NCBI GenBank assembly: GCA_020725385.1
Contig: DYFC01000060.1
Coordinates: 1 to 64,000, forward strand
Source: Nitrospira japonica
GTDB taxonomy: Bacteria; Nitrospirota; Thermodesulfovibrionia; Thermodesulfovibrionales; SM23-35
Reading direction: 5' to 3'
DNA: 64,000 bases
In this document: positions 42,412 to 64,000 of the stretch, one piece after another
Layout of the letters: every line of letters begins with the position of its first letter
Position numbering within the stretch: position 1 is the stretch's first letter
Made by a program: the position numbers and the translations under genes
The notes under the pieces: generated by a model
What the model was told of the DNA's origin: nothing
The model's database searches: none
What the model saw: only the letters and a program-made list of their open reading frames with translations

Positions 42412-42723
42412 CTATTCAGATTTTATAGCTTTTTGTAGAATTTCAACAGATGGGACATTCGAGAGTCTTCCTGACTCATCAACGAACATTCTTCAGTTAA
42501 ATCCTGCATTACCTAATGGTTGTAATTCTTTGCCATTTATGAAAATTGATGGCGAACCAGAGACTTTTAATGATATGGCTTCCTCCTGAGTAATTCTATG
42601 AAATTTGAGATCAGCCTGTTTATTTTCTTTTTCAATCGCAAGAATAATATTTGTTTTTAAAGCCTCTTCTGTTGGACAGTTTGATGAAAAGTAACAGTCT
42701 ATTTTTAGTCTCTCTTTATTCAT
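42412..42723 (-). CDS. Thioredoxin-fold selenoprotein (UGA at 42493-42495 read as Sec)
   Basis: GSPSIFINGKE..GFN-U-RMFVDESGRLSNVPSVEILQKAIKSE; UGA sits at the Cys of the CRx(Y/F) motif of this family; SECIS-like hairpin follows. Confidence 0.8.
42455..42489 (-). promoter_or_regulatory. Bacterial SECIS-like hairpin
   Basis: AUGUUCG..GAGUC-AGGAA-GACUC.CGAAUGU; apical loop begins 21 nt after UGA and has G at position 2. Confidence 0.7.
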
Positions 42724-44464: not shown

Positions 44465-44935
44465 TTAAAACCTTAAAGTCGCTTTTAATCTTTTAGGATG
44501 CAACAAAAGATCAAGACCTGCATTTGCATTAGGCACGTGAATATTAGATGCCATGATTGCTTCAACAGCACAGCCTTCTCCCTCGGAAACCGAGATACCG
44601 ATTTTTGCTGACTTCAACATTTTTCTGTCATTATTACCATTTCCGAAAGCAACAACAGTTTCGGTCCCGAGGTTTTTTATATATTCTTCTTTCTGAATGT
44701 CATGTCTTTTACCTTTAAGAATATATATTGTGCATTTAATGCCTTCAAGCTCTTTTCTTGCTTTTCCAAAAGTATCGGCAGTAAGAATATGCACTTTGAG
44801 AAATTTTGAGATTTCGTTTAATTGAGTTCTAACACCAGGTAATAGTACACCGTTTACTGAAAGAGTTCCTGTAAAATCAGAAACAAGATGTTCAAGTTTA
44901 ACCAGACCAAATCCCGGTATTTTAAGCTTAAACAT
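44465..44935 (-). CDS. HAD-family hydrolase (soluble P-type ATPase-like)
   Basis: DFTGTL, LTADTFG, GNGNND, EG; AAGGAGG RBS before ATG 44935. Confidence 0.88.
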   Translation of the reverse strand: MFKLKIPGFGLVKLEHLVSDFTGTLSVNGVLLPGVRTQLNEISKFLKVHILTADTFGKARKELEGIKCTIYILKGKRHDIQKEEYIKNLGTETVVAFGNGNNDRKMLKSAKIGISVSEGEGCAVEAIMASNIHVPNANAGLDLLLHPKRLKATLRF

Positions 44936-45011
44936 AACCACCTCCTTGAAAATAAATTACAATTCAATTATATATAATGTGGTAATATTTTTGTATTAAC
45001 CGGACTGTTAG

Positions 45012-45074
45012 TTTGAACCGCTTGAACCGTTTAAACCATGTAATCTATGTAAACCGTGTGAACTATTTGAACAA
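45012..45074 (+). repeat. Degenerate 9-bp tandem repeat, 7 units
   Basis: TTTGAACCG CTTGAACCG TTTAAACCA TGTAATCTA TGTAAACCG TGTGAACTA TTTGAACAA. Confidence 0.7.
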
Positions 45075-45108
45075 GTCTTTGTTTTTCGGCAAGTTTATAT
45101 TTCATGTA

Positions 45109-46302
45109 TTACTTTTTACGATTATTTATGACAATAATGAATATGATAAAAAACCCGGCAGATAAACTTGCTGTTATCGAGCCAAAATAAAAGGTTGCTG
45201 AGGGTGAAATCTTATCCCATAACCACCCCCCTATAAAACTTGCCGGAAACATGGCTAAACCGATTGCAGTATTATAAACTCCAAATGCTGTTGCCTTAAA
45301 ATCAGGCGGGATAATTGTTGCAAGAAAAGCTTTCTGTATTCCTTCTGTAAGTCCCATAAAAAGCCCGTAAAAACCGAATAATAACCATATGGTACTTGTG
45401 TCTTTAGCCACTGCAAAACCATAATAGAGCATAGCAAAGAGAATGAATCCGATTAGTATCACTCTTTTTCTTCCGAACCTGTCTGCTGCTATTCCTGCTG
45501 GAATTGCAGATAAAGAATATATGAGATTGAACATAAGATATACAACAGGAATCATGAGGGCTGAAATCCCTATTTGTTGGGCTCTGAGAATAAGGAATAC
45601 GTCACTTGAATTTCCCAAAGCAAACAAGGTTGCTATTGCCACAAAAAATTTAAACTTCCAGTCAAAATGTTTAAGAGTCAGTTTCGGCCTTTCTGAGGGC
45701 ATTTTAATAGCTTGCTTCTTTTCCTTGATAAATAAGATTATCAACAATACAGCTATTGCTCCGGGAATCATAGAGAGCCAGAATACCCATCTATAATTGT
45801 TTGAAAAAATACCCAGCAAAAAAAATGCAAGAGCTGGTCCAATTACAGCACCCATTGTATCCATCGAACGGTGAAAACCGAATGCTCTACCAAGATGTGT
45901 TTTTTCAGTTGACTCTGCAATAATAGCATCGCGTGGTGCCGTGCGTACCCCTTTGCCGAATCTGTCCATAAAACGAGAGCCCATTACATGGTGCCAACCT
46001 GTAGCAAGAGCAACAATAGGTCTGCTCAAAGTAGATATTCCGTATCCTGCAGCCATTAACCACTTCCGATTACCTATTCTGTCTGAAAACCATCCTGAAA
46101 ATACTTTCAATAAACTCGCGGTAGATTCTGCTATGCCTTCTATTAAACCTATAACAGATTTATTTACACCAAGCACATTAGCAAGAAATAATGGCACAAG
46201 TGGATATATCATCTCAGAACTGACATCCATAAAAAAACTGACGAGCCCTGCAATAAATACATTCTGTCCAAAACCAAAAAATTTTCTATTATCCTTTGTC
46301 AC
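45109..46302 (-). CDS. MFS transporter
   Basis: SFFMDVSSE, SDRIGNRK, DRFGKGVRTAPRDA, GRAFGFHRSMD. Confidence 0.92.
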   Translation of the reverse strand: MTKDNRKFFGFGQNVFIAGLVSFFMDVSSEMIYPLVPLFLANVLGVNKSVIGLIEGIAESTASLLKVFSGWFSDRIGNRKWLMAAGYGISTLSRPIVALATGWHHVMGSRFMDRFGKGVRTAPRDAIIAESTEKTHLGRAFGFHRSMDTMGAVIGPALAFFLLGIFSNNYRWVFWLSMIPGAIAVLLIILFIKEKKQAIKMPSERPKLTLKHFDWKFKFFVAIATLFALGNSSDVFLILRAQQIGISALMIPVVYLMFNLIYSLSAIPAGIAADRFGRKRVILIGFILFAMLYYGFAVAKDTSTIWLLFGFYGLFMGLTEGIQKAFLATIIPPDFKATAFGVYNTAIGLAMFPASFIGGWLWDKISPSATFYFGSITASLSAGFFIIFIIVINNRKK

Positions 46303-46322
46303 CTGTATTGTCCTTTCCTTAA

Positions 46323-46856
46323 CTATATATTTTTTTTCTGGCTCTTTTCATAAACCTTTTTTGAAAAATCATCAAACATCTTTTCACATTCTTTTATTTT
46401 CTCTATAGCCTGTTTTCTCAACGGAGCTTTTACTAAATCTCTTTTTTCAATTTTTTTCAACCAATGTTTTAACTTATCAAGTTCTTCTTCATTTTCTTCA
46501 ACCTCAGCGAAAATAAAATTCTTCCTTTCAATCTCAAACTTTATTTCTTTAAAAAAGTCTTCGCATTTTTCTATCACTTCCTGATATTCTTCATTTCTTG
46601 AGTCCATGAATACTTTAATGATTCTTTCTTCCTGTTTTTTATCTACTGCCTTACCTTCAACCAGCATCCCTTCACCCTTATATCCTTCGATTGTTTCGAC
46701 AAGTTTTTTTAGTTCATTTATATTTTCATTAGAATAAGGTATAACCCAGACTGTCTGATAATTTACAGCACCGAGCTTTTTTAATTGACGCCAGACGTAC
46801 ACCCTGGCTTTAGATGGCTCGGCCGGTAGACTATATGAAAAAAATAGCCATTTCAT
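46323..46856 (-). CDS. ChrB N-terminal-domain protein (putative DNA-binding regulator)
   Basis: MKWLFFSYSLPAEPSKARVYVWRQLKKLGAV..VWVIP..RNEEYQE; true start ATG 46856. Confidence 0.85.
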   Translation of the reverse strand: MKWLFFSYSLPAEPSKARVYVWRQLKKLGAVNYQTVWVIPYSNENINELKKLVETIEGYKGEGMLVEGKAVDKKQEERIIKVFMDSRNEEYQEVIEKCEDFFKEIKFEIERKNFIFAEVEENEEELDKLKHWLKKIEKRDLVKAPLRKQAIEKIKECEKMFDDFSKKVYEKSQKKNI

Positions 46857-46875
46857 GTAACTATTGTTACATGAA
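46852..46875. promoter_or_regulatory. Palindromic operator overlapping -10 region and start codon of the chrB-like gene
   Basis: TTCATGTAAC-TATT-GTTACATGAA; TTGACT -35 upstream on the minus strand; identical core at 50204-50222. Confidence 0.8.
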
Positions 46876-46888
46876 TATCTCTTCGAAG

Positions 46889-48100
46889 TCAATGCAGTAT
46901 TGACCTGGTCTTTTTGACCATAAGGAGTAAGGGCACGGAGGCCAATTGAGCTGCTATAGAAAATGCGATCAGAAGTGGAATAGAAAAATCGTATAGGAAC
47001 CCTATCAATGCACTCCCCAGAAACCAAAACACACCATAACCTGTATTGAAGATGCCATAAGCAGAAGCACGCTTGTCGCGAGGTGCCATTCCAGCGACAG
47101 CTGCCCGCATGACTGATTCGTGGGCACCCATTCCTATGCCCCAAAGGGCCATGCCGGCAAGGCTCAGATAGAAGCCTCCCAGGAATACCAAAGGTGCAAA
47201 GAATGAGGATAATAGAACTGCTATAATAACTATCGGTATGCCTTTTCGATCGAAAATTCGACCGAATACCAGAGCAGCAATAGCTGCAGTTCCCATTGAG
47301 ACAGAGTAAAAAATAGGGATCCAGTTTCCGGGAACTACCAATGTCTTTTGAAAATGGTAGGCGATAACAGGAAAATCCGCATACCCTGCGGCAATTAAGG
47401 CCATTGCTGTAAGATAAATCCAATAGACTCTGGGCAGTCCTTTTGTCTCGACTTCCGGCTTGGTCGCCTCCAGGTCACGGGGATGTGGATAAAGGAAACG
47501 CGCAAAGATAAGAACACCTATTGTAAGGAGTGCTGGTATCAACAAAAATGCAAACCCCATCTGATAAGTCCCCTTGAAATAAAGCACAGCCGCAACTATC
47601 AGGGGACCAAGCATTGCACCGGTTGTGTCCATGGCTTCGTGCAATCCGAATCCCCAGCCCCTTCCTATTTCATGAGTGGCATGCGAGAGCATCGCGTCGC
47701 GAACCGGGTTACGTATTGCTTTTCCAGCCCTTTCTGCAATGATGAAAAAAGCTGCCACTTCCCAGCGGCCTGCCAGTGCCATGGCAGGCACAGCCAGCAT
47801 ATTGATTAAGTAGCCAATGATAGTAATAGTCCAGTATTTCGCAGTCTTGTCGGTGACATAACCGGAGACAAGACGAAGCGCATATCCGACTAACTCCCCA
47901 AACCCTGAAACTATTCCCACTATGGTGGCATTTGCTCCAAGGAAGGCGAGGAACGGGCCGTAAATGCTTCGTGCTCCTTCGTGTGTCATATCTGCAAAGA
48001 GGCTAACAATACCAAGCAAAACTATGAACAGCACGGTAGATCGCTTGGTTGTTACTATAGGATGTATTCTTTCGTCCGAAACAACGTTTTGTTTATCCAT
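46889..48100 (-). CDS. MFS transporter
   Basis: SLFADMTHEG, ERAGKAIRNPVRDA, GWGFGLHEAMD, FDRKG; same family as 45109-46302. Confidence 0.92.
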   Translation of the reverse strand: MDKQNVVSDERIHPIVTTKRSTVLFIVLLGIVSLFADMTHEGARSIYGPFLAFLGANATIVGIVSGFGELVGYALRLVSGYVTDKTAKYWTITIIGYLINMLAVPAMALAGRWEVAAFFIIAERAGKAIRNPVRDAMLSHATHEIGRGWGFGLHEAMDTTGAMLGPLIVAAVLYFKGTYQMGFAFLLIPALLTIGVLIFARFLYPHPRDLEATKPEVETKGLPRVYWIYLTAMALIAAGYADFPVIAYHFQKTLVVPGNWIPIFYSVSMGTAAIAALVFGRIFDRKGIPIVIIAVLLSSFFAPLVFLGGFYLSLAGMALWGIGMGAHESVMRAAVAGMAPRDKRASAYGIFNTGYGVFWFLGSALIGFLYDFSIPLLIAFSIAAQLASVPLLLMVKKTRSILH

Positions 48101-48248
48101 AATGCACTCCTTTTCATCAGCTTCTTAAAAATAATGTACATATAAAACACTCCACTGTATTACGTCGAACCCGGCTCTGACGGCGAGCCAACATAGCGAT
48201 CCGGATAACAGGGGAGAGTTGGGGCGATAATCTCATTGATGTTACATC

Positions 48249-49097
48249 CTATTTCACTACAAGCACAGGTTTTTCGCTGTATTCAACAACCCTTTGCGAG
48301 ACACTGCCCCAGAAAATAGCCTCTGTAAAACCTTTTCCATGAGAGCCCATTACAATCAATGAAACATCTTCTTCAGTGGCAATTTTGTTAATCTCAGCAT
48401 AAGGCTTGCCCTTGATAAGCTGCACCGATACCTTAAAACCTTGTGACTGGAACTCCTGCTCCAAGTTTGCTAATTTTTCTTTTATGCCAAGATCGAAATC
48501 TGTCTCCAGAACATGAACAACGATAATTTCAGAGGCTCCTACTTTATGAAGTGTAGGGATATATTGTTTAGCGCGCTCTGCACTCGAAGACCAATCAGTG
48601 GGATAGAGTATCTTTCTGAACATATTGGTACAATATTGTTCGGTGGTCTCACCTGCTGTTTCTTTTAGAACATGGTATTTTGCCACCAGAACAGGAACCG
48701 CTGATTTTCTTATAATGCGGTCTGTTGTGGAGCCGACAAAAAGTTCTCCAAGAATATCCCTCTTCTGCCTGCCTGCAACAATGAGGGATACATCTTCTTC
48801 ATTTGCTGCCTTCAATATTTCAGAAACCAGTGAGCCCTCGACAATTTTTGTCTTGACAGCAACACCTTCGGTTTCCAGATATTCCGCAAATCTATTAATT
48901 TCTTTCTGAGCTTTATCGCGGATTCGATCGAAATCAATCGGAAACCCTGAATCCCTTATTATAAAAAGAGCTTCTGTTTCTATAACATTCATAAGAATGA
49001 CCTCTTCCAGACCAGCTGCTTTCAAACACGTCAAATTTTTCAGTATCGGCAATGCAAATTCTTCAAATTTTGTTGGATAGAGAATTTTCTTAAACAT
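48249..49097 (-). CDS. Tandem-domain universal stress protein
   Basis: Two MF(K/R)KILYPT repeats; GSTTDRIIRKSAVPVLV and MGSHG..GSVSQRVV..KPVLVVK. Confidence 0.93.
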   Translation of the reverse strand: MFKKILYPTKFEEFALPILKNLTCLKAAGLEEVILMNVIETEALFIIRDSGFPIDFDRIRDKAQKEINRFAEYLETEGVAVKTKIVEGSLVSEILKAANEEDVSLIVAGRQKRDILGELFVGSTTDRIIRKSAVPVLVAKYHVLKETAGETTEQYCTNMFRKILYPTDWSSSAERAKQYIPTLHKVGASEIIVVHVLETDFDLGIKEKLANLEQEFQSQGFKVSVQLIKGKPYAEINKIATEEDVSLIVMGSHGKGFTEAIFWGSVSQRVVEYSEKPVLVVK

Positions 49098-49121
49098 TTG
49101 TCTTCCTCCTCTTTGAAAATA

Positions 49122-50084
49122 TTATTTGACTCCCAGTAAAGGCGACAGCACTGAATATAAGACAAAAGCTACGACTGCTCCTATGAGGGGAGTTAGAAAC
49201 CACGATACAACGATCTCCTTTATAGTTTTCATGTTAATTGCATTAATGCCCCGCGATAATCCGGCGCCTGCTATTCCGCCTATCATTGCCTGATTCATAG
49301 AAGTAGGGTAGCCAAGAGAAGCAGCAATATGAGCAGTAATTCCCTGTGCCAACTGGGCACCAACAGCACTATTAATATCAAGTGAAACAATATGAAGGCC
49401 TACTTTTTCTAAAAGAGGGCGTCCCCATGTAAGAGCACCGATCGCCATGACAATGCCTCCGATAAAACCGGCCAGCATCTTTGACGGAATTGCACCTGTA
49501 CCAAAGAAGACACCTACTGCATTCCCTGTGTTGTTACAACCAAGAGTATAGGCAGCATAGCAGCATACGAGAAGGAGAAGGTATTTTTTAGCTTTATCAA
49601 ATTTCGTTAATGCTGATATATCCATAACCTTGGTCAGGATAAAACCAAGAATCGCCCCTACAATAGGTGTGCCTACCCATGTGATGGCCAGAGCAAGAAT
49701 AGTCGTTTCCCATTGGACTTGAGCTTTCATCCCTATTGCAGCGCCTACAACTGAAAAGATGGCCAACTGAGAGGTCGAAACCGGAAGTTTAAGCCAGGTA
49801 TTTGCAGCAGTCACAAGTGCTGCTGTGAGCATCATAATCATTGCCCCAAATATTGTCATATACTTTGCTTCAATAACTCCTGTACCGACTGTTTTGACAA
49901 CATTATGGCTTTCCAGAGTAGCACCCAGAAGTACAAAAATTGCGATCAGGATTGTTGCATTCCTTGGTTTGATAAGTTTCGCACCAAAAGCCGTTCCCAT
50001 TACCGCCCCTGTGTAATGTGATCCGATAGTCCATCCGAAAAAAAGCCCTGACAAAACCATGCCGATTAAATAAACCGTATCCAT
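49122..50084 (-). CDS. PiT (inorganic phosphate/anion transporter) family permease
   Basis: Inverted repeats with LPVSTSQ and YPTSMNQ, GCNNTGNAVG, SWFLTP; start ATG 50084 after GGGAGG. Confidence 0.85.
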   Translation of the reverse strand: MDTVYLIGMVLSGLFFGWTIGSHYTGAVMGTAFGAKLIKPRNATILIAIFVLLGATLESHNVVKTVGTGVIEAKYMTIFGAMIMMLTAALVTAANTWLKLPVSTSQLAIFSVVGAAIGMKAQVQWETTILALAITWVGTPIVGAILGFILTKVMDISALTKFDKAKKYLLLLVCCYAAYTLGCNNTGNAVGVFFGTGAIPSKMLAGFIGGIVMAIGALTWGRPLLEKVGLHIVSLDINSAVGAQLAQGITAHIAASLGYPTSMNQAMIGGIAGAGLSRGINAINMKTIKEIVVSWFLTPLIGAVVAFVLYSVLSPLLGVK

Positions 50085-50089
50085 TCTTT

Positions 50090-50206
50090 TCACCTCCCGC
50101 ATTTCTTTAGCTTCATTGATATGAAGCGAATTAAAATCAATCCAATATTCCAGCCTAATATAAATCCTGAAACAATAATTCCGATGAACAATATCATTTT
50201 TATCAT
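50090..50206 (-). CDS. Putative 38-aa leaderless membrane peptide upstream of the PiT gene
   Basis: MIKMILFIGIIVSGFILGWNIGLILIRFISMKLKKCGR; ATG inside the operator; stop overlaps PiT RBS. Confidence 0.5.
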   Translation of the reverse strand: MIKMILFIGIIVSGFILGWNIGLILIRFISMKLKKCGR

Positions 50207-50222
50207 GTAACTATTGTTACAT
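50204..50222. promoter_or_regulatory. Second copy of the ATGTAAC-N4-GTTACAT operator in a sigma70 promoter
   Basis: CATGTAACTATTGTTACAT; minus strand reads TTGACA-N17-TAACAAT-AGTTAC-ATG. Confidence 0.8.
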
Positions 50223-50684
50223 TTTATAATAATTTTTGTCAAGCTTTAAAATAGTTATTTATGTTACATTAAAAATTATTTAGATTTTTACAAGCTCCTC
50301 TTATTTGGTTAATAAAAGAAATGGGAATTTTTTATAACAGGAAACTGGTTAAAATATTCGTTTTATTTTTTTCAACTTATTGATATATACTATTTAAACT
50401 TAAAAAGGAGAAAGAATATATGGATAGTTCTGACGGATGTTGTAGTCAATGTTTTAATCAAAGAATAATTAATAATAAAAAAGAAGAAATGAAACTGTAT
50501 AGATTAAATTATGCAGTCCTGAATTTGAATCGTTCCAGCCAATAATATTTTTATAAACGATTCTCCTCTGGATTGCATAGATTAGATTAAAACCAGAGGT
50601 GAATCATGAAAAATCTTTTATGTGACTTTCCAATTAGTGATTCTATTAAATTTCATAGTATCCATTCAATAATAGGAGGCCATA

Positions 50685-53348: not shown

Positions 53349-53351
53349 ATT

Positions 53352-54149
53352 ATGCTGCATACAATTCTTCAGGCATTGGAAGATGGCCGGGTAATTGAGC
53401 TACCTGACAACGATAAAAAAGATGCTTTTGAAGTTTTAGCAAGCTTGCTGGAGGCCGTGCCATCTATTCCGGCTGGAACAGATATTGTTGGCGCGGTCCT
53501 GTCACGTGAGAGTATTTCTAACACTTCTCTGGGCAATGGATGGGCATGTCCCCATGCTCCTGTCCCATTTGATGGTGAGTTATTATGTGCTATAGGCTGG
53601 AGCCCGCAGGGAATAAAATATGGTAAACAGGACGAACCTCTTGTAAGGTTGATTATAATGTTTGTTGTCCCTGAAAATCAGAGAAGTCGTTATATTAAGG
53701 AAGTCTCAACTCTTGTTAAGGTAATTGAAAAACATCCTGAATGTAGAAATCTTGAAAATGTAGAGAATTTAAACGCTATACGTCTAAGATTGCTGGATAT
53801 GGCAAATTTTGCTATGGAAAATGGCGGACCGGATACCCGTGCTAAGATGATTGAATTGAAGACAAAGGCTGCTGTTATTCCAGCGATTGTACCAGAATTC
53901 GAAAACATGATAATTGAACCACTCATGATTATATCGGGACCCGGGATTGAACCTATTGTTCTAACACAGAACAAAGAATTATTTGATATTACTAAAGAAG
54001 ATAAAATACTTGCTACAGTTATTGCAGAAAAAAACTGGCATACTCTGAATGGATGGCGAATTGTGCGTAGGAGCAGTACAAATTATCAAGCGGATATAGT
54101 AGTTTATGATTGCTTTGCTATAAGGTCGGCCAGGAATAGTACAGTATGA
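53352..54149 (+). CDS. PTS EIIA(Ntr/fructose-type) domain protein with C-terminal extension
   Basis: RE....T.LG.GWACPHA phospho-His motif, V.LI.M; 3 nt after mgtA. Confidence 0.8.
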   Translation: MLHTILQALEDGRVIELPDNDKKDAFEVLASLLEAVPSIPAGTDIVGAVLSRESISNTSLGNGWACPHAPVPFDGELLCAIGWSPQGIKYGKQDEPLVRLIIMFVVPENQRSRYIKEVSTLVKVIEKHPECRNLENVENLNAIRLRLLDMANFAMENGGPDTRAKMIELKTKAAVIPAIVPEFENMIIEPLMIISGPGIEPIVLTQNKELFDITKEDKILATVIAEKNWHTLNGWRIVRRSSTNYQADIVVYDCFAIRSARNSTV

Positions 54150-54269
54150 CAAGTAAATAATTTTCATCCGGATTAAAAACATACTTAAGTAAATGCATTC
54201 TTATTGGTTATAAATTTATTGAACTCTTCATTTCTTTAAATGCCTTCTCAACGCTTCTTTTTTAATCGT

Positions 54270-56420: not shown

Positions 56421-57190
56421 TGTTTTTTTACCTCTTCATGCTTTAGGCTCACGGACTGTGTAATCAGTGATGCCGGAGGTTTGAGTCCAGCAACTACGAG
56501 TAGCGCGTGCAAGATAGCAAGAGGAGGAGGAGGTTGACCGGGAACTTCAACATCAACCGGAAGAAACTCGCTTATATTTTCATCACATACGAAACTCGGG
56601 CTGAAGACACCTCCTGATAGCGCACATGCTCCCACGGCTATTACCCACTTTGGCATTGGTATTGCGTCATATACTTTCCGGAGCGGTTCCCGCATGTGGT
56701 CAGTAAGTGGCCCAACTATAAGTAATACATCAGCTTCCCGTGGGGTCGGTGTGATGAAGAAGCCCAGGCGATGCATATTATAATAAGGATTGTTCAACTG
56801 ACGAACTTCATTCAGACATGCACCACAATCACCGGTGTCAACAACAATAATGTTAAGAGACCGATCAAAAGCCCGAACAAATTTTTTCCTTGTTTCTATG
56901 ATATTTGTGTCTGTAGCCCATTCATAACCTTGCTGCCAAGCTATGGGCAATGTTACACCACGAATGCATCTGTAACAGTGCACACAGCGGCGGTAATCAA
57001 CCACAAGCTTGTGATTTTGAAAGCTGAGTGCACCAACCGTACAGCGTTTGACAAGCTCACTGGCTTGTTTTTCTGGATAATCCCCGCCAAGTGGCAAGCC
57101 TGGAGATACTCCTGGTGCTGTTTCCTCTCGGCCTGGATAACAAGTTGTTTTGATACCGGTTGCCAATCCTTTTCTAACCCACTGGCTCAT
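56417..57190 (-). CDS. HyfI/NuoB-like small subunit with fused N-terminal ferredoxin-like segment
   Basis: CTVGAL..CVHCYRC, then DTGDCGACLNE, PREAD.LLI.G, GACA.SGG, PGQPP. Confidence 0.88.
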   Translation of the reverse strand: MSQWVRKGLATGIKTTCYPGREETAPGVSPGLPLGGDYPEKQASELVKRCTVGALSFQNHKLVVDYRRCVHCYRCIRGVTLPIAWQQGYEWATDTNIIETRKKFVRAFDRSLNIIVVDTGDCGACLNEVRQLNNPYYNMHRLGFFITPTPREADVLLIVGPLTDHMREPLRKVYDAIPMPKWVIAVGACALSGGVFSPSFVCDENISEFLPVDVEVPGQPPPPLAILHALLVVAGLKPPASLITQSVSLKHEEVKKQ

Positions 57191-57214
57191 ATCTCTTTTC
57201 TCCCATTTATCGTT

Positions 57215-58792
57215 TTATCGATCGTTTTCAGCTACCGAAAGATCGAATGTTGCCAGAATAATCGGGAAATCCTGAAAAGCGAAATTTTCCGCAGCCACGT
57301 GAAAACCATGCCAATTTACAAACGAAGGTGTAATGAGGCGGTACCGGGAAACACGCCCATCTTCTCCTATGCGTAACCAATGAAAAGCCGCACCACGTGG
57401 TGCCTCGACCCATCCCAGTGCTGAACCGGGTTTGATTCGTACCTCAGAAAAAACCGGACCTCCCGGCAACGAAGCTGTTGCCTGCTCCATAATTTTTACC
57501 GACTGCCGTGCTTCTTCAAACAGGACACGCAGCCGGGCATAACCGTCGCCTTCCTGCTCACATGGCACCTCAAAAGTATATGCTTCGTAACCCGAGTATG
57601 GTTGAACTTTACGCAAGTCACGTGTAATTCCTGATGCACGGGCAACAGGCCCTACAAGGCCGTGTTTCATAGCCTCCAGTTGATTTACAATTCCGACTTC
57701 TTCCAGCCGGTCGAGAAAGCTACTGGAAACTCGCAGCATTTCTTCCAGTCTGTCAAAGCGCTTAAGAATAGCCTTTGCCTGTTGAACTGCCTCGTGGCAG
57801 ACTGAATCGTCAAACTCCTTGTTTAATCCTCCAGGAACTGCCAGGCCAAAGAGATATCGGTGTCCTGTAAACCAACCTGAAAGCCGCAGCAATTCCTCCT
57901 CCATTATTGCGGCCTGACTGGTGGCTACAGCCAGAGCGGTTGACTCGCAGATTTCCTGTACAGCGCCTACATGATGACGTAGTCGCTCCAGTTCTGCTAA
58001 AAGAACGCGGAGAACTTGTGCCCGCTCAGGAACTTTTATACCACAAATATTTTCGATCGACTGGACAAATGCAAGCGAATGGGCAAAAGCTGTAGTTGCT
58101 GCAAAACGTTCGGCCAGCAGCAAAGTGCTTTCAGTTGTAAGCCTCTCAGCAATTTTTTCGATAGCTCGATATTTATAAAATAGGCGGGGTATTGTACGTA
58201 TCACATCTTCACCAACGGTTTCCAGCAAGAAATGCACTGGTTCAGTTACACCGGAAAATTTCGGCCCAATCGTCATGCCAAAAGCCCCGGGTGCTTTTAC
58301 AATGAGATTGGGCTTCCACTCGAGATCAGGCATTCGATGCTCTACTGATTTTTTTCCATCAAAGCTATGGAGCATCGGTCTTAGTTTTTCCTGCCACCTC
58401 TCATTGTGAAGCACAAAATCTCCGAGACGTGGATGACCGGCAAAATATAGTCCAAAGAGGTCTTCTGCTTCACGTTCATGCCAGTCAGCAGCATGTAAGA
58501 AACCGCTAATGCTGGGAAAAGCGGGATCAGATAGCGGCTGGTGTGTTAGAATGTATATCCAACCCGGCTCGTGGTCGCTATAAAATACATAGCGTAGCTC
58601 CCAGTCCGAAGAACCTTCCTCAACTATCAGACCGGCGAAGACGTAATGCATTTCTAAACTCAACCATTTACAAACATCTGGAATATCCTCTAACTCACAT
58701 TCCATTTCACATAATGAATGACTGAGATCAAGGCGGGGCTTAATGTCCGGCCAATGTCTGATAGCAATTTCCTGAATGTTATCTAATGTCAT
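57215..58792 (-). CDS. HyfG/NuoCD-like large subunit lacking NiFe ligands
   Basis: EREAEDLFG..F.GHP (NuoC), ELERL..H, GP.ARASG, GD..AR, VEAPRG; no CxxC at either NiFe site; start ATG 58792. Confidence 0.9.
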   Translation of the reverse strand: MTLDNIQEIAIRHWPDIKPRLDLSHSLCEMECELEDIPDVCKWLSLEMHYVFAGLIVEEGSSDWELRYVFYSDHEPGWIYILTHQPLSDPAFPSISGFLHAADWHEREAEDLFGLYFAGHPRLGDFVLHNERWQEKLRPMLHSFDGKKSVEHRMPDLEWKPNLIVKAPGAFGMTIGPKFSGVTEPVHFLLETVGEDVIRTIPRLFYKYRAIEKIAERLTTESTLLLAERFAATTAFAHSLAFVQSIENICGIKVPERAQVLRVLLAELERLRHHVGAVQEICESTALAVATSQAAIMEEELLRLSGWFTGHRYLFGLAVPGGLNKEFDDSVCHEAVQQAKAILKRFDRLEEMLRVSSSFLDRLEEVGIVNQLEAMKHGLVGPVARASGITRDLRKVQPYSGYEAYTFEVPCEQEGDGYARLRVLFEEARQSVKIMEQATASLPGGPVFSEVRIKPGSALGWVEAPRGAAFHWLRIGEDGRVSRYRLITPSFVNWHGFHVAAENFAFQDFPIILATFDLSVAENDR

Positions 58793-58799
58793 GTGCTGT

Positions 58800-60242
58800 T
58801 CACCTCTCAAGGGCAGATGCTCCGAGGCGCAATAACTGATGAAGGGGTTCAGGAAGATAAAAGCCTAACCAGATCACAAGCAAAGCTGTTACGAGGAGCA
58901 CCACCAAACAACTTGCCGGCAAGCGTACCTTTAGCTTTGCATCGCTATTGCTTCCACCAAAAACCATTTGGTTAATGTGCTGTAAAATTCCAAAGAACCC
59001 GATTGCTATAAATAAAACCAGCAGCGCCATTTCTATAAAACGGCCTTCAGACAGACCTGCTCTGAAGATAGAAAACTCGCTCAGGAATACTACAAAAGGC
59101 GGAGCACCGGCGATAGCCAGTCCACCCAGGAGCAGGCTCGCACCGGCAACAGGCGATGTGCGAATGAGACCGCGTACCAGGGAGATTTCGCGAGTGCCGA
59201 CTGCCAGGAGTGCTGCGCCTGCAGCGAAAAAACAAAATGATTTGGTAAGCGTATGGCTAAAAGCTTGATATAAAGCTCCATAGTGTGCAGAAGAAGTGCC
59301 AAGGCCTGCAGCCAGCAGAATAATACCCATGTGTTCCACTGTGGAAAATGCAAACATCCTTTTGTAATCGCTAACTTGTAGCAAAAGAAATGCAGCAGCT
59401 CCAACCGATAGCAGACCGAAGACGATCGCATACACCTCTGCATGAGTTCCAGGAGCAGCCTTGAGAACCGGGAAAAGTCGCAGAATCACATAGAGCACAG
59501 CAGTAGTCTCAACACCGGACAACAAGGCACAGACTGGCGACGGCGCCTGACTGTGAGCATCGGGTAGCCAGGTATGCATCGGTACGAGCCCGGCTTTTGT
59601 ACCAAGTCCTACCAGAATCATTACGAACGCTACCTCTAACAGGACAGCAGGCATTCGCGGCGCAGCAGCAACGAGACCATCCCATGTATAAGTGCCACCG
59701 CCTGCAGCCTGCATTGTGGCGAAAAGCATCAAAAAACCAAGCAAACCCACAGCAGCGCCCATAAGTGAGAGCACAACATATTTCCATGCTGCTTCAAGTG
59801 CTTCGTGTGTATTTTCAAAGCACACCAAAAGGGCTGAGCATAGTGTTGTCAATTCCACAACGATCCAGACCAGAGTCGGTTCTACCAGAACAGGGATGGC
59901 AAGCATCGAAAAGATGAAGAGATTGAAATTCGCGTAATAAAGGCGCAGACGTCCGGGTTTATGAGAATTCATCGACATGTAGCCTAACGAAAAGAAAGCT
60001 GCCATTGCTCCGACAAAGGCGATCATGAGAAGCATAAGCACACTTAACCCGTCTACCGCAATCCATTTCGGGAACACTGATATAGGCTGGCCTGTGCTCA
60101 CAACCTGTTCGGCGAGTTGCAGACTTATAAAAAATATTGCTGAGGACGAAGCGACGGTAACAACTGATGCAAGCCGTGGCAAAGGCAGGAAGGACAGGGC
60201 TGCAGCTGCTAAAGGTAGAATAAGAAGAATAATTACATTCAT
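58800..60242 (-). CDS. HyfF-like antiporter subunit
   Basis: W...ELTT, LEAAWKY, GTKAGLVPMHTWLPDAHSQAP, KRMFAFSTVEHMG. Confidence 0.9.
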   Translation of the reverse strand: MNVIILLILPLAAAALSFLPLPRLASVVTVASSSAIFFISLQLAEQVVSTGQPISVFPKWIAVDGLSVLMLLMIAFVGAMAAFFSLGYMSMNSHKPGRLRLYYANFNLFIFSMLAIPVLVEPTLVWIVVELTTLCSALLVCFENTHEALEAAWKYVVLSLMGAAVGLLGFLMLFATMQAAGGGTYTWDGLVAAAPRMPAVLLEVAFVMILVGLGTKAGLVPMHTWLPDAHSQAPSPVCALLSGVETTAVLYVILRLFPVLKAAPGTHAEVYAIVFGLLSVGAAAFLLLQVSDYKRMFAFSTVEHMGIILLAAGLGTSSAHYGALYQAFSHTLTKSFCFFAAGAALLAVGTREISLVRGLIRTSPVAGASLLLGGLAIAGAPPFVVFLSEFSIFRAGLSEGRFIEMALLVLFIAIGFFGILQHINQMVFGGSNSDAKLKVRLPASCLVVLLVTALLVIWLGFYLPEPLHQLLRLGASALER

Positions 60243-60958
60243 TGACCTGTCTCCTCCAGCGCTTCATCGGTTGTACGTTCTTTAAGCCTTGCCATTGCAC
60301 CAACTTCGGTAGTGCCGATATGCTGATGGACTGCACGGATAAGGACGCCTGTAATAAAAACGATGATTAGGCCGTCTGTGGCAATAGCAAGTTCCACAAG
60401 GAGTGGCAATGTACGGGCTAGACTTATACCCGCAAAAAAAGCGCCGTTTTCCATCGCCAATAAGCCGATAAGTAGAGGCACCGCTTCACGCCGTACTGCG
60501 AGCGTATAAGCTCCCAGAAAAAGCACAGCAAATCCGATTGGAATATTCGGCCCGCGAAATTCAACCGCTATTGCTTGCTGCAACGGGATAGTAAGAAAAT
60601 AGGCTATGATTACAAGCGCCAGCGAAATAAGAAGTGATGAAGGGATATTCAATACCTGGTCGATCTCGCGGCGGGTATAGACTTCTTCATGCACTGTTTT
60701 CCGTAGAACCCAGGGAATTAAAATTGCTTTTGCGACCACATTCACAAGAGCAACGCCATAAAGATGCAAAGAGGAGTGCCGAAGTCCAAGCAGGAAAGCG
60801 GATACTGCCAGCAGCAATGATTGTGTGATAAAAAGTGTTAGTGTCCCCTTTGCCTGACGTGTAGCGACAATGCCGAAAGCAGTGAGTAGAAATAGACCAC
60901 CTGCGAGCATATTCAGTGAATCCAGAATTGAAACTGCTATTAAATTATCATTTATCAT
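60239..60958 (-). CDS. HyfE-like membrane subunit
   Basis: Seven TM helices, KA..IP..L, GLLAMENG, P.LVE. Confidence 0.85.
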   Translation of the reverse strand: MINDNLIAVSILDSLNMLAGGLFLLTAFGIVATRQAKGTLTLFITQSLLLAVSAFLLGLRHSSLHLYGVALVNVVAKAILIPWVLRKTVHEEVYTRREIDQVLNIPSSLLISLALVIIAYFLTIPLQQAIAVEFRGPNIPIGFAVLFLGAYTLAVRREAVPLLIGLLAMENGAFFAGISLARTLPLLVELAIATDGLIIVFITGVLIRAVHQHIGTTEVGAMARLKERTTDEALEETGQ

Positions 60959-60965
60959 GGTTTCA

Positions 60966-61916
60966 TCAAAGAGAAAATAACCTCATAAGCATTGCTGCCA
61001 CCGATGTAACGAAGGCGCTACCCAGAAATTCGGTAATGCGAAACAAACGAAGTTTGGCCAGCGATGATTCGATGATAACGAGCACCAGAATAAAAATAAA
61101 TATTTTGAAAAGGACAAGTGGAACAGCTAATAGCACATTACCAAACGTCTGTTTGTAGGCAAGCCCCCATGGTGTGACGAGAACGTTGAGAAAAATACAT
61201 AGCAGCACAAACAACTTCATATAACCACCCCATTTTATCAGGGCTGCACCTTTGCCCGAGTATTCCAGCATTTTAGACTCGTCGATCATAGCTAATTCAA
61301 AGTGTCCGGAAGGATTGTCAACCGGAATACGCCCGGTCTCTGCGAGGATTAGCATGAAGAAAGCAGCCATCAGGAGCACATGTGATGGTTCCAGAAAATT
61401 TGATGGTGGCGACATCCAGCGTTTTTGTACAATATAGGGGATGGTAGAATCAGCAACAAAAGCAACCGTGAAGAATACAATAATAAACACAGGTTCTGCC
61501 AGGAAACCAACCATACGTGTCCGGCTTGCACCCATAGGGCCATAAGGGTTAGCAGTGTCAACTGCAGCTAGTGTTTTAAAAAATCCACCGAGTGCCAGCA
61601 CAAAGCCGCCACCCACCATATCAGCCATAAACGCAAAAAAGAGTGGATAATCTGTGAGAACCGGGATGAGTAGTGTGACAAAAATAGGAGTGATAAATGC
61701 AATATACGGTGTAGCACGGAAAATCCAGGAACTTTCCTCAGAGATTACCTCATCTTTTTGGAAGAATTTCCACAGATCGCGATAAGGCTGGAAAATACTG
61801 GGACCACGCTTTGATTGTACAATTTCCTTTAGGCGATTTATCACGCCTGCAACAAGCGGCGAGAAAACAAGTACTACCAGTACTTGTAAGAGGTTGAAAA
61901 AAATGCGCTCAATCAC
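60966..61916 (-). CDS. HyfC/HycD (NuoH-like) membrane subunit
   Basis: QSKRGPSIFQPYRDL.K...K, GASR, AETGRIPVDNP..HFELAMI, EYSG, AKLRLFR. Confidence 0.92.
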   Translation of the reverse strand: MIERIFFNLLQVLVVLVFSPLVAGVINRLKEIVQSKRGPSIFQPYRDLWKFFQKDEVISEESSWIFRATPYIAFITPIFVTLLIPVLTDYPLFFAFMADMVGGGFVLALGGFFKTLAAVDTANPYGPMGASRTRMVGFLAEPVFIIVFFTVAFVADSTIPYIVQKRWMSPPSNFLEPSHVLLMAAFFMLILAETGRIPVDNPSGHFELAMIDESKMLEYSGKGAALIKWGGYMKLFVLLCIFLNVLVTPWGLAYKQTFGNVLLAVPLVLFKIFIFILVLVIIESSLAKLRLFRITEFLGSAFVTSVAAMLMRLFSL

Positions 61917-62060
61917 GGACCGACTTCTCTGACCGTTACTTTGCCAGACGGTCTTTTATACTGAGCGTTATAGGCAGCCACCAATGAGCGTTCCATAACC
62001 TTCCCAAGTTTGTTTCTGATGGGATCGTCGGGCTTACCGACTCCCGCATTTTCTCAAACT

Positions 62061-62113
62061 ATAGGAGTTATCAGCCCCAGGAGGGCGGCGCTTCAAGGCG
62101 AACTCCATCGCCT
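62061..62113 (-). ncRNA. Fluoride riboswitch (crcB motif)
   Basis: Minus strand AGGCGATGGAGTTCGCC-TTGAAGCGCC-GCCCTCCTGGGGC-TGATAACTCCTAT: P1, P2 and pseudoknot GGAGTT/AACTCC match the consensus. Confidence 0.92.
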
Positions 62114-62125
62114 ACGATAAAAAGA

Positions 62126-62154
62126 ATACTACCACAATTTTGATCAATGTGCAA
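62126..62154 (-). promoter_or_regulatory. Sigma70 promoter feeding the fluoride riboswitch
   Basis: TTGCAC-N17-TAGTAT, about 12 nt upstream of the aptamer. Confidence 0.65.
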
Positions 62155-62171
62155 GTTTTTTTTAAACCGGT

Positions 62172-62594
62172 TTACTTTACTACAATTACCGAGCATGGAG
62201 CGAGCTTCGTAATGTTCTGTGATGTCGAGCCCCACACCCTTCCAAATATCTTAGAATGCCCCATGAATCCGATTACAAGAAGGTCGAAATTACCTTCTTT
62301 TGCATATTGTACTATTGTTTCAACTTCATGGCCTGCCAGAATCTTTGTGTGAAGTTCAATACCCTCTTTTGTTGCTTCTTCGATTGCTTCCTCATTGAGT
62401 TTCTTAAAGAACCCGTTTGCCTCTTCTTTGTATTCAACTACTTCGCCTATAGTTGCTGCATAATGTGGAATTTTTTCTTCCACTGAGAGGCTGTAAAGTT
62501 TTGCATCATATTGCTTTGCAAGATCTATTGCAACTTTCAGTGCATGTTTAGATCCTTCTGAGCCATCGTATGCAATCAATATCTTTTTATACAT
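62172..62594 (-). CDS. Universal stress protein
   Basis: MYKKILIAYDGS, DLLVIG..GHS...WGSTS..APCSVIVVK; AGGAGG RBS before ATG 62594. Confidence 0.93.
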   Translation of the reverse strand: MYKKILIAYDGSEGSKHALKVAIDLAKQYDAKLYSLSVEEKIPHYAATIGEVVEYKEEANGFFKKLNEEAIEEATKEGIELHTKILAGHEVETIVQYAKEGNFDLLVIGFMGHSKIFGRVWGSTSQNITKLAPCSVIVVK

Positions 62595-62803
62595 CAATCC
62601 CCTCCTGTCCCTATTGATGTTTTTGAAATTTGGCCTTATCGATACCTCCGTCAAAAGGTCAGATAAAACCGCACATTCCCCCATAAAAATCATGCCAAGA
62701 AATCAAAATTTTCATTGTAAAAAATCCTTTTTTATAGTCTCTCTTGCCTTTTTTCTGACAATGCCTTCTTCTGAATCGGGCAAGTCTATTGTAATTAATT
62801 ACA

Positions 62804-63196
62804 TTAATGGGTTTTCCCTTGCTTTAATGTAATCAGAAAAATGCCACCGATCAGAGTCAGGAAACCCGCGTATAAAAATCCTGCAGCTGGTGAAACCTTT
62901 GTCCACAAAATACCGACTACAAAGCTCGATATAAAATCTCCAACTCCGTTAACCATTGATAGTGCTCCATAGCCGGTGCCTCTCAAATTTTCTGGCAAGA
63001 GGTCACCTGACAAAGCCCTTTCCATGGAATCAACGATTGCTATATAAATGCCAGCGAGAGAAAATAGTATGAACATAGCCCAAAGCTTGGGAGGTTCAAA
63101 AATAAAACCCAGACACATCAAAGAGAACCCATAATCACTTAATAGGCTTGTTAGACCTATTCCCAAAATGCTTTTAGTCAGCCATTTATTTTTCAC
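62804..63196 (-). pseudogene. Internally deleted MFS transporter
   Basis: Start of helix 1 (GIGLTSLLSD) joined in frame to the last four helices (ERAL..DLLP..LRGTGYG); only 130 aa. Confidence 0.7.
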
Positions 63197-63950
63197 AGGC
63201 TTTCTCCATTTTGAGATCAATATCAATCAATTTCAGGTTCACGCGACCTCCTGTAAGATATTTCGGCAAAACAGCTTTATTAGCAAATTTTTTTGTCAAT
63301 CCTGGATTACCGTTTGTGATGTCATATATATCCGGGAAGACCTCTTCTACTAAAGCGTTGGCTTCGCCTATGGTTTGCATGGTTAATAAGAATGAGTCGT
63401 ACTTTGATAGATTTTTTATCCGCACTTTTGGCAAAAGCCAGAGACAGTATTCAAGACATGCTGTAAAATTGTAATCAGACATCTCCCAGCTCTGCCGGCT
63501 TGCTGTAATTATGATTGCAAGGTCTTTTAAGGGTGTCAAAAATGCGTTAATTCTGGGAGTCACAGATTCAAGGTGGTCAAGTATTATACAGAATTTCTTA
63601 TGTCCGATATTATTAAATATCATATTTTTCATTTCCCTTGAATTTACCTCTTTTAGATCGCTTTGACGACAAATCTCTCTAATTCTTTTATATTTGTCTA
63701 TATTTGCAAGGGTTCTGGAACGTTGCAGCAGAACCTCGGCGATGGGCAGGAGGATTTCTTTAAGTGTCCTGCTTTCCCTGCAAAATACAGGTATTAATGA
63801 AGTATTCATATCCATCCAATTTTGATATATATGTTCAAGAATTGCAGTTTTACCGACTCCCTCTGGCCCGTAGATATGAAAGGATTTCATTTTGTTGATA
63901 TATGATTTAATTAGACTGATTTCATTATCTCTTCCAATAAGTTTACTCAT
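63186..63950 (-). CDS. P-loop (AAA/STAND-like) ATPase
   Basis: LIGRDNE, Walker A GPEGVGKT, Walker B-like IILDHLE, TNGNPG. Confidence 0.8.
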   Translation of the reverse strand: MSKLIGRDNEISLIKSYINKMKSFHIYGPEGVGKTAILEHIYQNWMDMNTSLIPVFCRESRTLKEILLPIAEVLLQRSRTLANIDKYKRIREICRQSDLKEVNSREMKNMIFNNIGHKKFCIILDHLESVTPRINAFLTPLKDLAIIITASRQSWEMSDYNFTACLEYCLWLLPKVRIKNLSKYDSFLLTMQTIGEANALVEEVFPDIYDITNGNPGLTKKFANKAVLPKYLTGGRVNLKLIDIDLKMEKACEK

Positions 63951-63967
63951 AAAGCAAATCTTTAAAT

Positions 63968-64000
63968 AAAAAACTCCTACCAATTTTATTAGTAGGAGTT
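63968..64000 (-). terminator. Leader terminator, probably the expression platform of a second fluoride riboswitch cut by the window edge
   Basis: Minus strand AACTCCTAC-loop-GTAGGAGTT-TTTT; AACTCCTAC is the typical 3' end of fluoride aptamers. Confidence 0.65.

Follow-up and report, generated by a model that had tools for sequence, protein, structure and literature searches.

A mosaic fluoride-response cluster in a Thermodesulfovibrionales genome in which no known fluoride exporter was found

Among the described systems closest to the locus reported here is the regulon of the fluoride riboswitch (RF01734, the crcB motif), known to us from the account of Baker et al. 2012 in the accessible part of a 2024 review (PMC11139923). 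That part of the review states that Fluc (CrcB) or CLC-F occurs in >85% of representative bacterial genomes and gives Na+/H+ antiporter, 'formate hydrogen lyase', HAD, and enolase genes as common riboswitch cargo. We analyzed positions 1-64,000 (hereafter the window, 64,000 nucleotides) of the 70,770-base contig C60 (DYFC01000060.1) from the genome of an uncultured, sulfate-reducer-type bacterium of the Thermodesulfovibrionales (Nitrospirota). The window contains part of a fluoride-response cluster that occupies the contig from approximately 42.7 kb up to its end (70.77 kb). As in the described regulon, the aptamers are genuine and the platforms are predicted to be of the terminator-type ON design, and the review (PMC11139923, part available) already lists Na+/H+ antiporters, USPs, HAD-like and MFS proteins, and 'formate hydrogen lyase' as cargo. 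Two features set the locus apart: neither crcB nor CLC-F turned up in this genome or in the majority of genomes of its family, and all four switches lie within one rearranged cluster.

Most cargo classes of the cluster are already known. The new elements are a clade of PiT-like proteins with replaced ligands and an accompanying ChrB_N protein, the widespread lack of Fluc and CLC-F in a family that has retained its riboswitches, and the cassette-like reshuffling of the genes. PiT-like and ChrB_N members of the riboswitch regulon were not found among the matches listed in the available parts of the literature, and the supplementary lists of the 2010 and 2012 riboswitch papers may name them.

Fluoride riboswitches and the search for known exporters

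Genes were called from an open reading frame (ORF) listing and from Pfam and NCBIfam scans, and the remainder of the contig beyond the window was annotated likewise. Using the RF01734 covariance model with its gathering score of 34 bits as the cut-off, exactly four matches were retrieved genome-wide. All were on the minus strand of contig C60, spanning 62.0-70.7 kb, and scored 48.9 (RS1), 41.9, 39.9, and 34.9 (RS4) bits, each at or above the gathering score. An initial annotation of the window, made from the sequence alone, had recognised one full and one probable partial fluoride riboswitch; the former is RS1 (62055-62121, 48.9 bits), and the latter proved to be a genuine copy, RS4 (63986-64053, 34.9 bits), truncated by the end of the window.

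The four riboswitches head four units on the same strand: a CPA2-family cation/proton antiporter and a USP behind RS2; a dynamin-like GTPase, the protein unk147 and, in the present gene order, phosphoenolpyruvate (PEP) synthase behind RS3; a P-loop ATPase, an MFS remnant, and USP_1 behind RS4; and the Ehr operon behind RS1. RS2, RS3, and RS4 are each associated with a hairpin and T-tract, of which the 5' arm is the 3' strand of the aptamer (CCCCTACTGA...TCAGTAGGGG plus T-tract for RS2; AACTCCTAC...GTAGGAGTT plus T-tract for RS3 and RS4; in RS4, a 13-bp hairpin overlapping the aptamer's 3' strand). As terminators that use the aptamer's 3' strand represent the usual design, these three should be transcriptional ON switches. 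RS1 is preceded by a promoter-like element (TTGCAC-17-TAGTAT) just upstream, and its 171-nucleotide leader folds weakly better than shuffled sequences (z = -1.9).

The two exporter families were searched for with the profiles PF02537 (CRCB) and PF00654 (CLC), which gave matches in 11 and 12 of 14 control genomes. In the host genome (2.46 Mb, 71 contigs, 96.6% complete), neither profile had a match (0 PF02537, 0 PF00654), which upheld at the whole-genome level the earlier remark that no fluoride channel was recognisable. The comparison was extended to 24 other genomes of the family (81-100% complete) and, where stated, to 40 relatives (these 24 and 16 others of the order). RF01734 was present in 17 of the 24 family genomes, CrcB in one, and any CLC in five; 14 of the 17 riboswitch-bearing family genomes (91-100% complete) had neither CrcB nor CLC. 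Among 32 genomes carrying the CPA2 clade described below, CrcB was found in one, any CLC in five, and neither in 26. For comparison, CrcB was present in 17 of 34 genomes with the Ehr complex and in 15 of 18 genomes with a sister clade of the PiT-like protein. As CrcB was readily found in these two genome sets, the quality of the metagenome-assembled genomes (MAGs) is not the cause of the gap.

The CPA2 antiporter has homologs with 80-93% identity in MAGs of the Thermodesulfovibrionales and other Nitrospirota, and a riboswitch lies upstream in 28 of the 32 assessable loci of its clade, at a distance of approximately 220 nucleotides or less in 24 and within 2.2 kb on the same strand in 4 more. 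L056, L059, L068, and L069 (our handles for related loci) lack it, and L067 and L073 were outside this count. In the Ehr loci described below, riboswitches were called using a purpose-built covariance model, R1, as a strict regular expression missed most copies (e.g., those ending in CCTG). Compared with NapA and KefC (CPA2 antiporters; PDB 4BWZ and 8BXG), the protein has the same Na_H_Exchanger fold and keeps a lysine in transmembrane helix (TM) 10 that is aligned to the NapA lysine. It differs from NapA in TM5, where DD is replaced by TD in the host and in 27 of 29 other aligned sequences and by ND in 2, in the presence of TGLT for the NapA motif PRGE, and in its link to riboswitches. With one aspartate and the lysine of the cation site retained, the clade looks, from its residues, like a cation/proton exchanger and not an anion carrier.

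Organization and origin of the inserted block

The features of the cluster are listed below in contig coordinates, with GC3 denoting the GC content at third codon positions.

42720-44426, minus strand: B12-binding radical SAM/TPR protein, encoded at the end of the native riboswitch operon (Pfam)
44465-44941, minus strand: small HAD-like protein, 158 amino acids (Pfam/NCBIfam; motifs DFTGT and GNGNND)
45109-46302, minus strand: MFS_A transporter, native fluoride-operon gene (PF07690)
46323-46856, minus strand: ChrB_N-only protein, 177 amino acids (PF20229, 137 bits)
46873-66585, no strand: inserted mosaic block, 19.7 kb, extending past the window end (absent from the collinear locus L042, raised GC3)
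46889-48100, minus strand: MFS_B transporter (PF07690)
48249-49097, minus strand: tandem USP (PF00582, two stretches)
49122-50102, minus strand: PiT-like (PHO4 family) protein (PF01384, 162.4 bits against a cut-off of 33.7)
50685-53348, plus strand: MgtA (TIGR01524, 1097.5 bits against a cut-off of 610.75)
53352-54149, plus strand: PtsN-like EIIA-2 domain protein (PF00359)
54270-61916, minus strand: six Ehr-type genes (NuoH-like, HyfE-like, HyfF-like, NuoC/D-like, ferredoxin-NuoB-like, and HyfB-like)
62055-62121, minus strand: fluoride riboswitch RS1 (RF01734, 48.9 bits)
62172-62594, minus strand: USP_1, paralog of the native USP_2 (PF00582)
62804-63226, minus strand: MFS remnant, 140 amino acids (ORF/Pfam)
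63186-63950, minus strand: conserved P-loop ATPase (AAA_16/STAND-like), 254 amino acids, ATG at 63950, first gene behind RS4
63972-64000, minus strand: terminator hairpin and 3' part of RS4 (aptamer 63986-64053, RF01734, 34.9 bits)
64088-66478, minus strand, beyond the window: PEP synthase, ppsA (NF005057, 962 bits)
66586-67029, minus strand, beyond the window: unk147, 147-amino-acid protein without assignment
67134-68888, minus strand, beyond the window: dynamin-like GTPase
68954-69019, minus strand, beyond the window: fluoride riboswitch RS3 (RF01734)
69020-69442, minus strand, beyond the window: USP_2
69435-70574, minus strand, beyond the window: CPA2-family Na_H_Exchanger (PF00999, 148 bits)
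70631-70701, minus strand, beyond the window: fluoride riboswitch RS2 (RF01734)

The ORF listing and the Pfam and NCBIfam scans confirmed nearly every gene named in the initial annotation, which had described the region as a single acquired module. The native arrangement was apparent from the closest locus, L042, in which the order is riboswitch, CPA2, USP, riboswitch, dynamin, unk147, ChrB_N, MFS_A, HAD, and radical SAM (the last with 87% amino acid identity). The DNA of L042 aligns collinearly to 70730-67134, 66999-66677, 46872-45123, and 44978-42741 of the contig, and it has 165 bp in place of 46,873-66,585. In L043, L045, L048, L049, L052, L070, and L073, the CPA2 and USP genes, with or without the dynamin gene, are joined directly to HAD and MFS_A. 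From the gene order in L042 and these other relatives, it follows that HAD, MFS_A, and ChrB_N are native fluoride-riboswitch cargo and that the 19.7-kb block, now situated between unk147 and ChrB_N, splits the operon.

The composition of the DNA changes at the same positions. The GC content, approximately 0.35 elsewhere, rises to 0.41-0.49 between 47 and 50 kb and to 0.45-0.50 between 54 and 62 kb, in agreement with the GC-richer segments seen earlier. Genes between 46889 and 66478 (MFS_B to ppsA) have a GC3 of 0.305-0.455, compared with a background of 0.256 +/- 0.029 (maximum 0.319) for 28 long ORFs in 1-42 kb. In the flanks, GC3 is 0.236 for radical SAM, 0.245 for HAD, 0.307 for MFS_A, 0.290 for ChrB_N, 0.282 for dynamin, 0.191 for USP_2, and 0.261 for CPA2, with unk147 (0.378) as the exception, and the GC3 step coincides with the synteny junctions. 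The block thus has two marks of a genomic island, being missing from close relatives and deviant in composition. The claim of acquisition is therefore supported for 46,873-66,585 and not for HAD, MFS_A, and ChrB_N, which are native.

No tRNA was found in the window, no repeat of at least 9 nucleotides was common to both junctions, and no integrase domain was detected among 19 window proteins (42,720-63,983) and 5 proteins from 64,088-70,574. At the left junction, a perfect 8+4+8 palindrome (CATGTAAC-TATT-GTTACATG, 46854-46873) spans the ChrB_N start codon and ends where homology to L042 and to the related locus L082 stops (46872); it could be an operator or a recombination site. The sole trace of a mobile element seen near these modules is an integrase-core (rve_3) fragment directly after ChrB_N in the related locus (L082:11799-12095).

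The block is a mosaic of at least four origins, which is at odds with a single acquired module: it comprises a second fluoride locus of the order (riboswitch and P-loop ATPase, then PiT-like, tandem USP, and MFS_B), a foreign riboswitch-Ehr cassette, mgtA-EIIA, and a ppsA gene of the Nitrospirota type. The second fluoride locus is contiguous and undisrupted in L082, a MAG of the Thermodesulfovibrionia. On one strand, L082 carries a riboswitch, a pyruvate-phosphate-dikinase-like gene, a riboswitch, the P-loop ATPase (76% identity), six small genes, the PiT-like gene (94%), the tandem USP (87%), MFS_B (83%), ChrB_N (81%), and the integrase-core fragment. The six small genes (L082:4753-7647) encode a protein with a weak DUF6062 match, an ABC ATPase, a coiled coil, an unassigned protein, a HEAT/zinc-ribbon protein, and an unk147-like protein. 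Nucleotide identity to the contig is 77-83% over 64046-63199 and 50270-46339, and L082 has 3.1 kb where the host has 12.9 kb (MFS remnant, USP_1, RS1, Ehr, and EIIA-mgtA). In both L082 and L083, the PiT-set genes follow a riboswitch-led row of genes on the same strand. In the host, the oppositely oriented mgtA-EIIA pair cuts off PiT-like, the tandem USP, MFS_B, ChrB_N, MFS_A, and HAD from any riboswitch.

Consistent with this, no riboswitch was found before the PiT operon or mgtA in an E-value-based Rfam scan of 44-64 kb, and model R1 gave the same result; riboswitch control of the PiT-USP-MFS-ChrB_N-MFS-HAD genes, assumed earlier, thus does not apply to the host genome. The sole additional hit of the Rfam scan, to mir-186, was judged spurious. 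The divergent region between PiT-like and mgtA (50103-50684, 582 nucleotides) is AT-rich (GC approximately 0.27-0.35) and has no Rfam match beyond the spurious microRNA, and homology to L082 extends into it for 168 nucleotides upstream of the PiT-like start codon.

Co-conservation does not extend to the mgtA-EIIA pair. The best match of MgtA among the 40 relatives was 54% identical, and no mgtA or EIIA counterpart was present in 111 related loci searched with the island proteins, except for one 28% hit. The mgtA gene ends at 53348 and EIIA starts at 53352, so that the two are probably co-translated; the C-terminal part of the EIIA protein (approximately 120 amino acids) has no domain assignment.

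Orthologs of ppsA (69-82% identity) were found in 22 loci of Nitrospirota, most often at other genomic locations. Riboswitches lie next to ppsA in L136 alone, in the order riboswitch, ATPase, ppsA, riboswitch, and radical SAM gene. As this is 1 of 22 ortholog loci, ppsA was ruled out as regular riboswitch cargo. In several Thermodesulfovibrionia genomes, a fluoride riboswitch unit contains a PEP-forming enzyme, as a dikinase-like protein in L082 (455-3303) and L083 (528-2924) and as PEP synthase in the host and L136, which would fit a bypass of fluoride-inhibited enolase.

Taken together, modules seem to have been reshuffled among fluoride loci. The ChrB_N gene is present in both parental arrangements and is therefore a plausible crossover point.

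Several other genes of the cluster recur in related fluoride loci. MFS_A orthologs with 85-89% identity follow riboswitch-controlled CPA2-USP or dynamin genes in Thermodesulfovibrionales loci, and MFS_B, besides the copy in L082, has orthologs of 55-64% identity after CPA2-USP in Desulfomonile and other loci. The region had been described as containing three MFS genes of the same family; two are indeed full MFS proteins, but they share only 28% identity, and the third is the 140-amino-acid remnant. The tandem USP follows the PiT-like gene in 9 related loci (51-87% identity), and USP_1 is a diverged paralog with approximately 73-75% nucleotide identity to the USP_2 orthologs of relatives. Orthologs of the P-loop ATPase lie directly behind a riboswitch in L082 and L083 (73-76%) and in L136 (57%).

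P-type ATPase phosphorylation sites are classical targets of metal-fluoride phosphate mimics. The HAD-like protein resembles a free-standing phosphorylation domain of such ATPases (DFTGT and GNGNND), and full-length homologs with 40-90% identity adjoin MFS_A, dynamin, or CPA2-USP genes in 9 related loci; one may speculate that it is a phosphatase or a binder of metal-fluoride complexes. The radical SAM protein has its TPR repeats at the C-terminal end, and its gene may be unrecognised riboswitch cargo; in L136, the radical SAM gene (L136:3489-6057) shares its strand with a fluoride riboswitch located approximately 0.8 kb upstream.

Nickel-free Ehr complex, PiT-like protein, and ChrB_N protein

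The six Ehr genes form a block that is kept in 36 loci from other phyla, with identities of the nearest relatives ranging from 45-69% (large subunit) to 80% (NuoH-like). These relatives belong to MAGs of Terriglobia, Desulfobacterota, Bacillota, Thermoleophilia, Phycisphaerae, and Spirochaetia. The NuoH-like ortholog of this fluoride type was found in none of the 24 family genomes, and only one of the 16 other genomes of the order has it. This sole ortholog within the order, from another family, is 79% identical and has a riboswitch directly upstream, and the remaining hits are paralogs with 38-44% identity. According to model R1, a fluoride riboswitch lies upstream on the same strand in all 26 Ehr loci in which the first gene of the operon is present; another ten loci, truncated within the operon, were excluded from this count. 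The distance is at most 600 nucleotides in 23 of the 26 and 1.8-2.1 kb in the other 3, which leaves room for an intervening gene; in L021, this gene encodes a dynamin-like GTPase. The riboswitch of L019 scored only 22 bits with R1 and 35.4 bits with the Rfam model. RF01734 was present in 33 of the 34 Ehr-bearing genomes. The Ehr cassette therefore travels with its own riboswitch and not, as had been proposed, with the PiT set.

With Ehr complexes, E. coli Hyf, and formate hydrogenlyase, the operon shares six homologous subunits (NuoH, HyfE, HyfF, NuoC/D, NuoB, and HyfB), and hydrogenase-4 models were the best hits. The large subunit lacks the N-terminal cysteine pair, and its C-terminal NiFe motif is changed to DLSVAENDR. 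In 29 aligned homologs, the DPCxxCxxR cysteine pair was absent from all, and GLSxAE[NCS]DR was present in 28, the remaining one having GLCIAESDR. The complex thus has the subunit set of Ehr without NiFe ligands and lacks the two CxxC pairs of group 4 [NiFe]-hydrogenases. The NuoB-like subunit (56417-57190, minus strand) has four conserved cysteines in its N-terminal ferredoxin-like domain. Three of the four cysteines for its proximal [4Fe-4S] cluster are conserved (two invariant, one in 31 of 33 homologs), and the fourth (CPP motif) is cysteine in 15 of 33 homologs, otherwise Q, F, S, N, or A, and glutamine in the host.

As both NiFe cysteine pairs are missing across the clade and the operon has no formate dehydrogenase gene, this Ehr-type complex is not a hydrogenlyase. 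The link between the riboswitch and Ehr is already in print under the name 'formate hydrogen lyase', which is counted among the most common riboswitch cargo in the available part of the review (PMC11139923, citing Baker et al. 2012); our literature search found no paper that joins Ehr with fluoride or the fluoride riboswitch. The printed cargo label is corrected here to a nickel-free Ehr complex.

The PiT-like protein matched the solved structure of TmPiT (PDB 6L85) with E = 5.5e-31, and a protein-atlas look-up returned only generic PHO4 clusters. In common with TmPiT and SLC20, it belongs to PF01384, has two inverted repeats, and keeps the first hairpin motif of the P-x-S-T type (PVSTS). In TmPiT, D22 and D258 of two G-x-N-D-x motifs bridge inorganic phosphate (Pi) and two Na+, and D327 binds a third Na+ (PMC7413737, part available). 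In the PiT-like protein, N21, D22, D258, D327, and K314 are replaced by H29, Y30, N191, Q250, and H237, respectively, and N257 is kept as N190. All three Na/Pi-binding aspartates are lost, including the aspartate of both repeat motifs, which sets the protein apart from PiT/SLC20 transporters within PF01384, and it is unlikely to bind Na/Pi in the known way.

The replacements are a feature of the clade. The motifs G[SA]HYTGA and G[AC]NNTGNA were present in all 22-23 aligned homologs (59-94% identity). A sister clade (12 sequences, 36-41% identity) has G[AV]HYTGA, yet its second repeat carries the canonical GANDV[SA]NA, so that the D258-to-N change separates the riboswitch-linked clade from the sister clade. 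Of 23 loci of the PiT-like clade, 18 have a fluoride riboswitch within the fetched stretch, compared with 0 of 18 for the sister clade; in 12 of the 23, the switch is located upstream and on the same strand. The five PiT-like loci without a riboswitch include three contigs of only approximately 5 kb. The PiT/USP/MFS/ChrB_N neighbourhood, the conservation of which had, with Ehr included, been put forward as a check of the initial annotation, is thus co-conserved elsewhere and near riboswitches. CrcB was absent from all 7 genomes having the PiT-like protein closest to that of the host.

The residues that replace the ligands (His, Tyr, and Asn, with Ser and Thr) give a polar pocket of hydrogen-bond donors, which we take to be of the kind used for fluoride, and this pattern makes the hypothesis of fluoride export more concrete. 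The riboswitch-linked clade, usually with its ChrB_N partner, could conceivably constitute a third, unrelated class of bacterial fluoride transporter and, together with CPA2, may explain lineages of free-living anaerobes without Fluc and CLC-F; we regard this suggestion, which is derived from sequence comparison, as tentative and rather doubtful. Should the PiT-like or MFS proteins export fluoride, their role would be the same as that of Fluc and CLC-F, with which they have no sequence relationship.

The ChrB_N gene adjoins the PiT-like gene in most related loci. Full-length ChrB consists of a ChrB_N domain and a C-terminal domain. In the protein found here, PF20229 alone covers residues 16-171 of 175-177 amino acids. 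In the structural model, which is confident (predicted local distance difference test score, pLDDT, of 93, from an alignment of 19 sequences), a Cas2-like beta-alpha-beta-beta-alpha-beta fold precedes three long helices. Even the best matches in the PDB, to the PaaX repressor (middle and C-terminal parts, E = 0.024) and to Cas2 chains, were weak. The model contained no winged-helix (wHTH) or other DNA-binding domain and no further domain. With neither the C-terminal domain of ChrB nor a DNA-binding domain, the protein does not bear out the 'ChrB-like regulator' or protein repressor of the initial annotation; it may be a partner or a regulator of the PiT-like protein.

Proposed function and alternative explanations

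The cluster would operate as follows. According to the accessible part of the review, HF entry follows the pH gradient, and enolase inhibition depletes PEP (PMC11139923); the remaining steps were derived from this source and from knowledge of the protein families. Fluoride would enter as hydrogen fluoride (HF) and be trapped according to the pH gradient. The fluoride-induced CPA2 antiporter would lower the gradient that traps HF-derived fluoride, and the nickel-free Ehr complex, with its Fe-S cysteines kept and presumably ion-translocating, would re-energise the membrane. PEP synthase would supply PEP past the inhibited enolase; at the corresponding position, L082 and L083 have a riboswitch followed by a dikinase-like gene. 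Membrane damage and general stress would be repaired or buffered by the dynamin-like GTPase and the USPs, and any efflux of fluoride would be mediated by the PiT-like or MFS proteins.

On balance, the locus is probably a mosaic fluoride-response cluster in a genome without a known exporter, in which tolerance does not rely on Fluc or CLC-F. Several observations weigh against this view. The contig ends 69 nucleotides beyond RS2 and the assembly is in 71 contigs, so a crcB gene could lie in the missing 3.4%, and G037, a species of the same genus, has a riboswitch-crcB arrangement. The genomes carrying CPA2 are mostly kin, and their counts overstate independence. The mutual exclusion of CPA2 and CrcB is neither complete nor symmetrical: in the Ehr-selected set of 34 genomes, the sole carrier of this CPA2 has CrcB as well, and the 17 CrcB-less genomes of the set are without this CPA2; a one-for-one replacement of CrcB by CPA2 was ruled out on this basis. 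Likewise, CrcB occurs in 13 of the 23 genomes of the PiT-like clade, which rules out such a replacement by the PiT-like protein. The exchange direction of CPA2 and its effect on fluoride are deduced, the PiT-like gene of the host has no riboswitch, no T-tract terminator was recognised when looked for behind RS1, and, with an ortholog near a riboswitch in a single locus, the link of ppsA to the riboswitch may be an accident of rearrangement.

One alternative is an ordinary accessory fluoride regulon, in which a normal exporter (crcB or CLC-F) was missed by the draft assembly and the genes described here only mitigate damage. The incompleteness of the assembly, the contig end just past RS2, and the riboswitch-crcB of G037 speak for it, as does the fact that the available part of the review (PMC11139923) names all cargo classes except PiT-like and ChrB_N. 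We consider it unlikely, because both exporters are also missing from 14 of 17 riboswitch-bearing family genomes of 91-100% completeness and from 26 of 32 CPA2-clade genomes, whereas CrcB was detected in the other MAG sets (17/34 and 15/18). The reading of the initial annotation, namely one acquired 19-kb module that couples anion export, Mg2+ uptake, and energy conservation under the control of a riboswitch and a ChrB-type repressor, with MFS or PiT proteins as exporters, accounts for the raised GC of two segments, the lack of a CrcB or CLC match, the co-conservation of PiT-USP-MFS-ChrB_N near riboswitches, and the loss of Na/Pi ligands from the PiT-like protein. Its probability is low: L042 contains HAD, MFS_A, and ChrB_N, which are native genes, the block is derived from at least four sources, and neither mgtA-EIIA nor Ehr is conserved together with the PiT set. 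The ChrB_N model, moreover, has no DNA-binding domain, and the PiT and MFS genes have no riboswitch in the host.

The PiT-like, USP, MFS_B, and ChrB_N proteins might also serve another anion stress (sulfate, phosphate, or a chromate-like oxyanion) and be mere neighbours of the fluoride genes. The name ChrB derives from chromate resistance. The best NCBIfam hit of the PiT-like protein was a sulfate permease model (132 bits, below the cut-off of 400), in L089 and L090 the riboswitch comes after PiT-ChrB_N and not before, and none precedes these genes in the host. Nevertheless, this appears improbable, given the riboswitch counts that separate the clade from its sister clade (18/23 against 0/18; upstream on the same strand in 12/23) and the position of these genes behind riboswitch-led rows on the same strand in L082 and L083.

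Several fluoride riboswitches are retained in a free-living lineage, most genomes of which yielded neither exporter. The lineage would then either cope with fluoride by managing its pH gradient and energy supply, with no export involved, or possess an exporter that has escaped recognition. The cluster supplies candidates for fluoride export, the first of which is a protein of the PiT fold with all cation and phosphate ligands replaced. Its fluoride-response units, each with its own riboswitch, seem to have been shuffled and transferred as cassettes.

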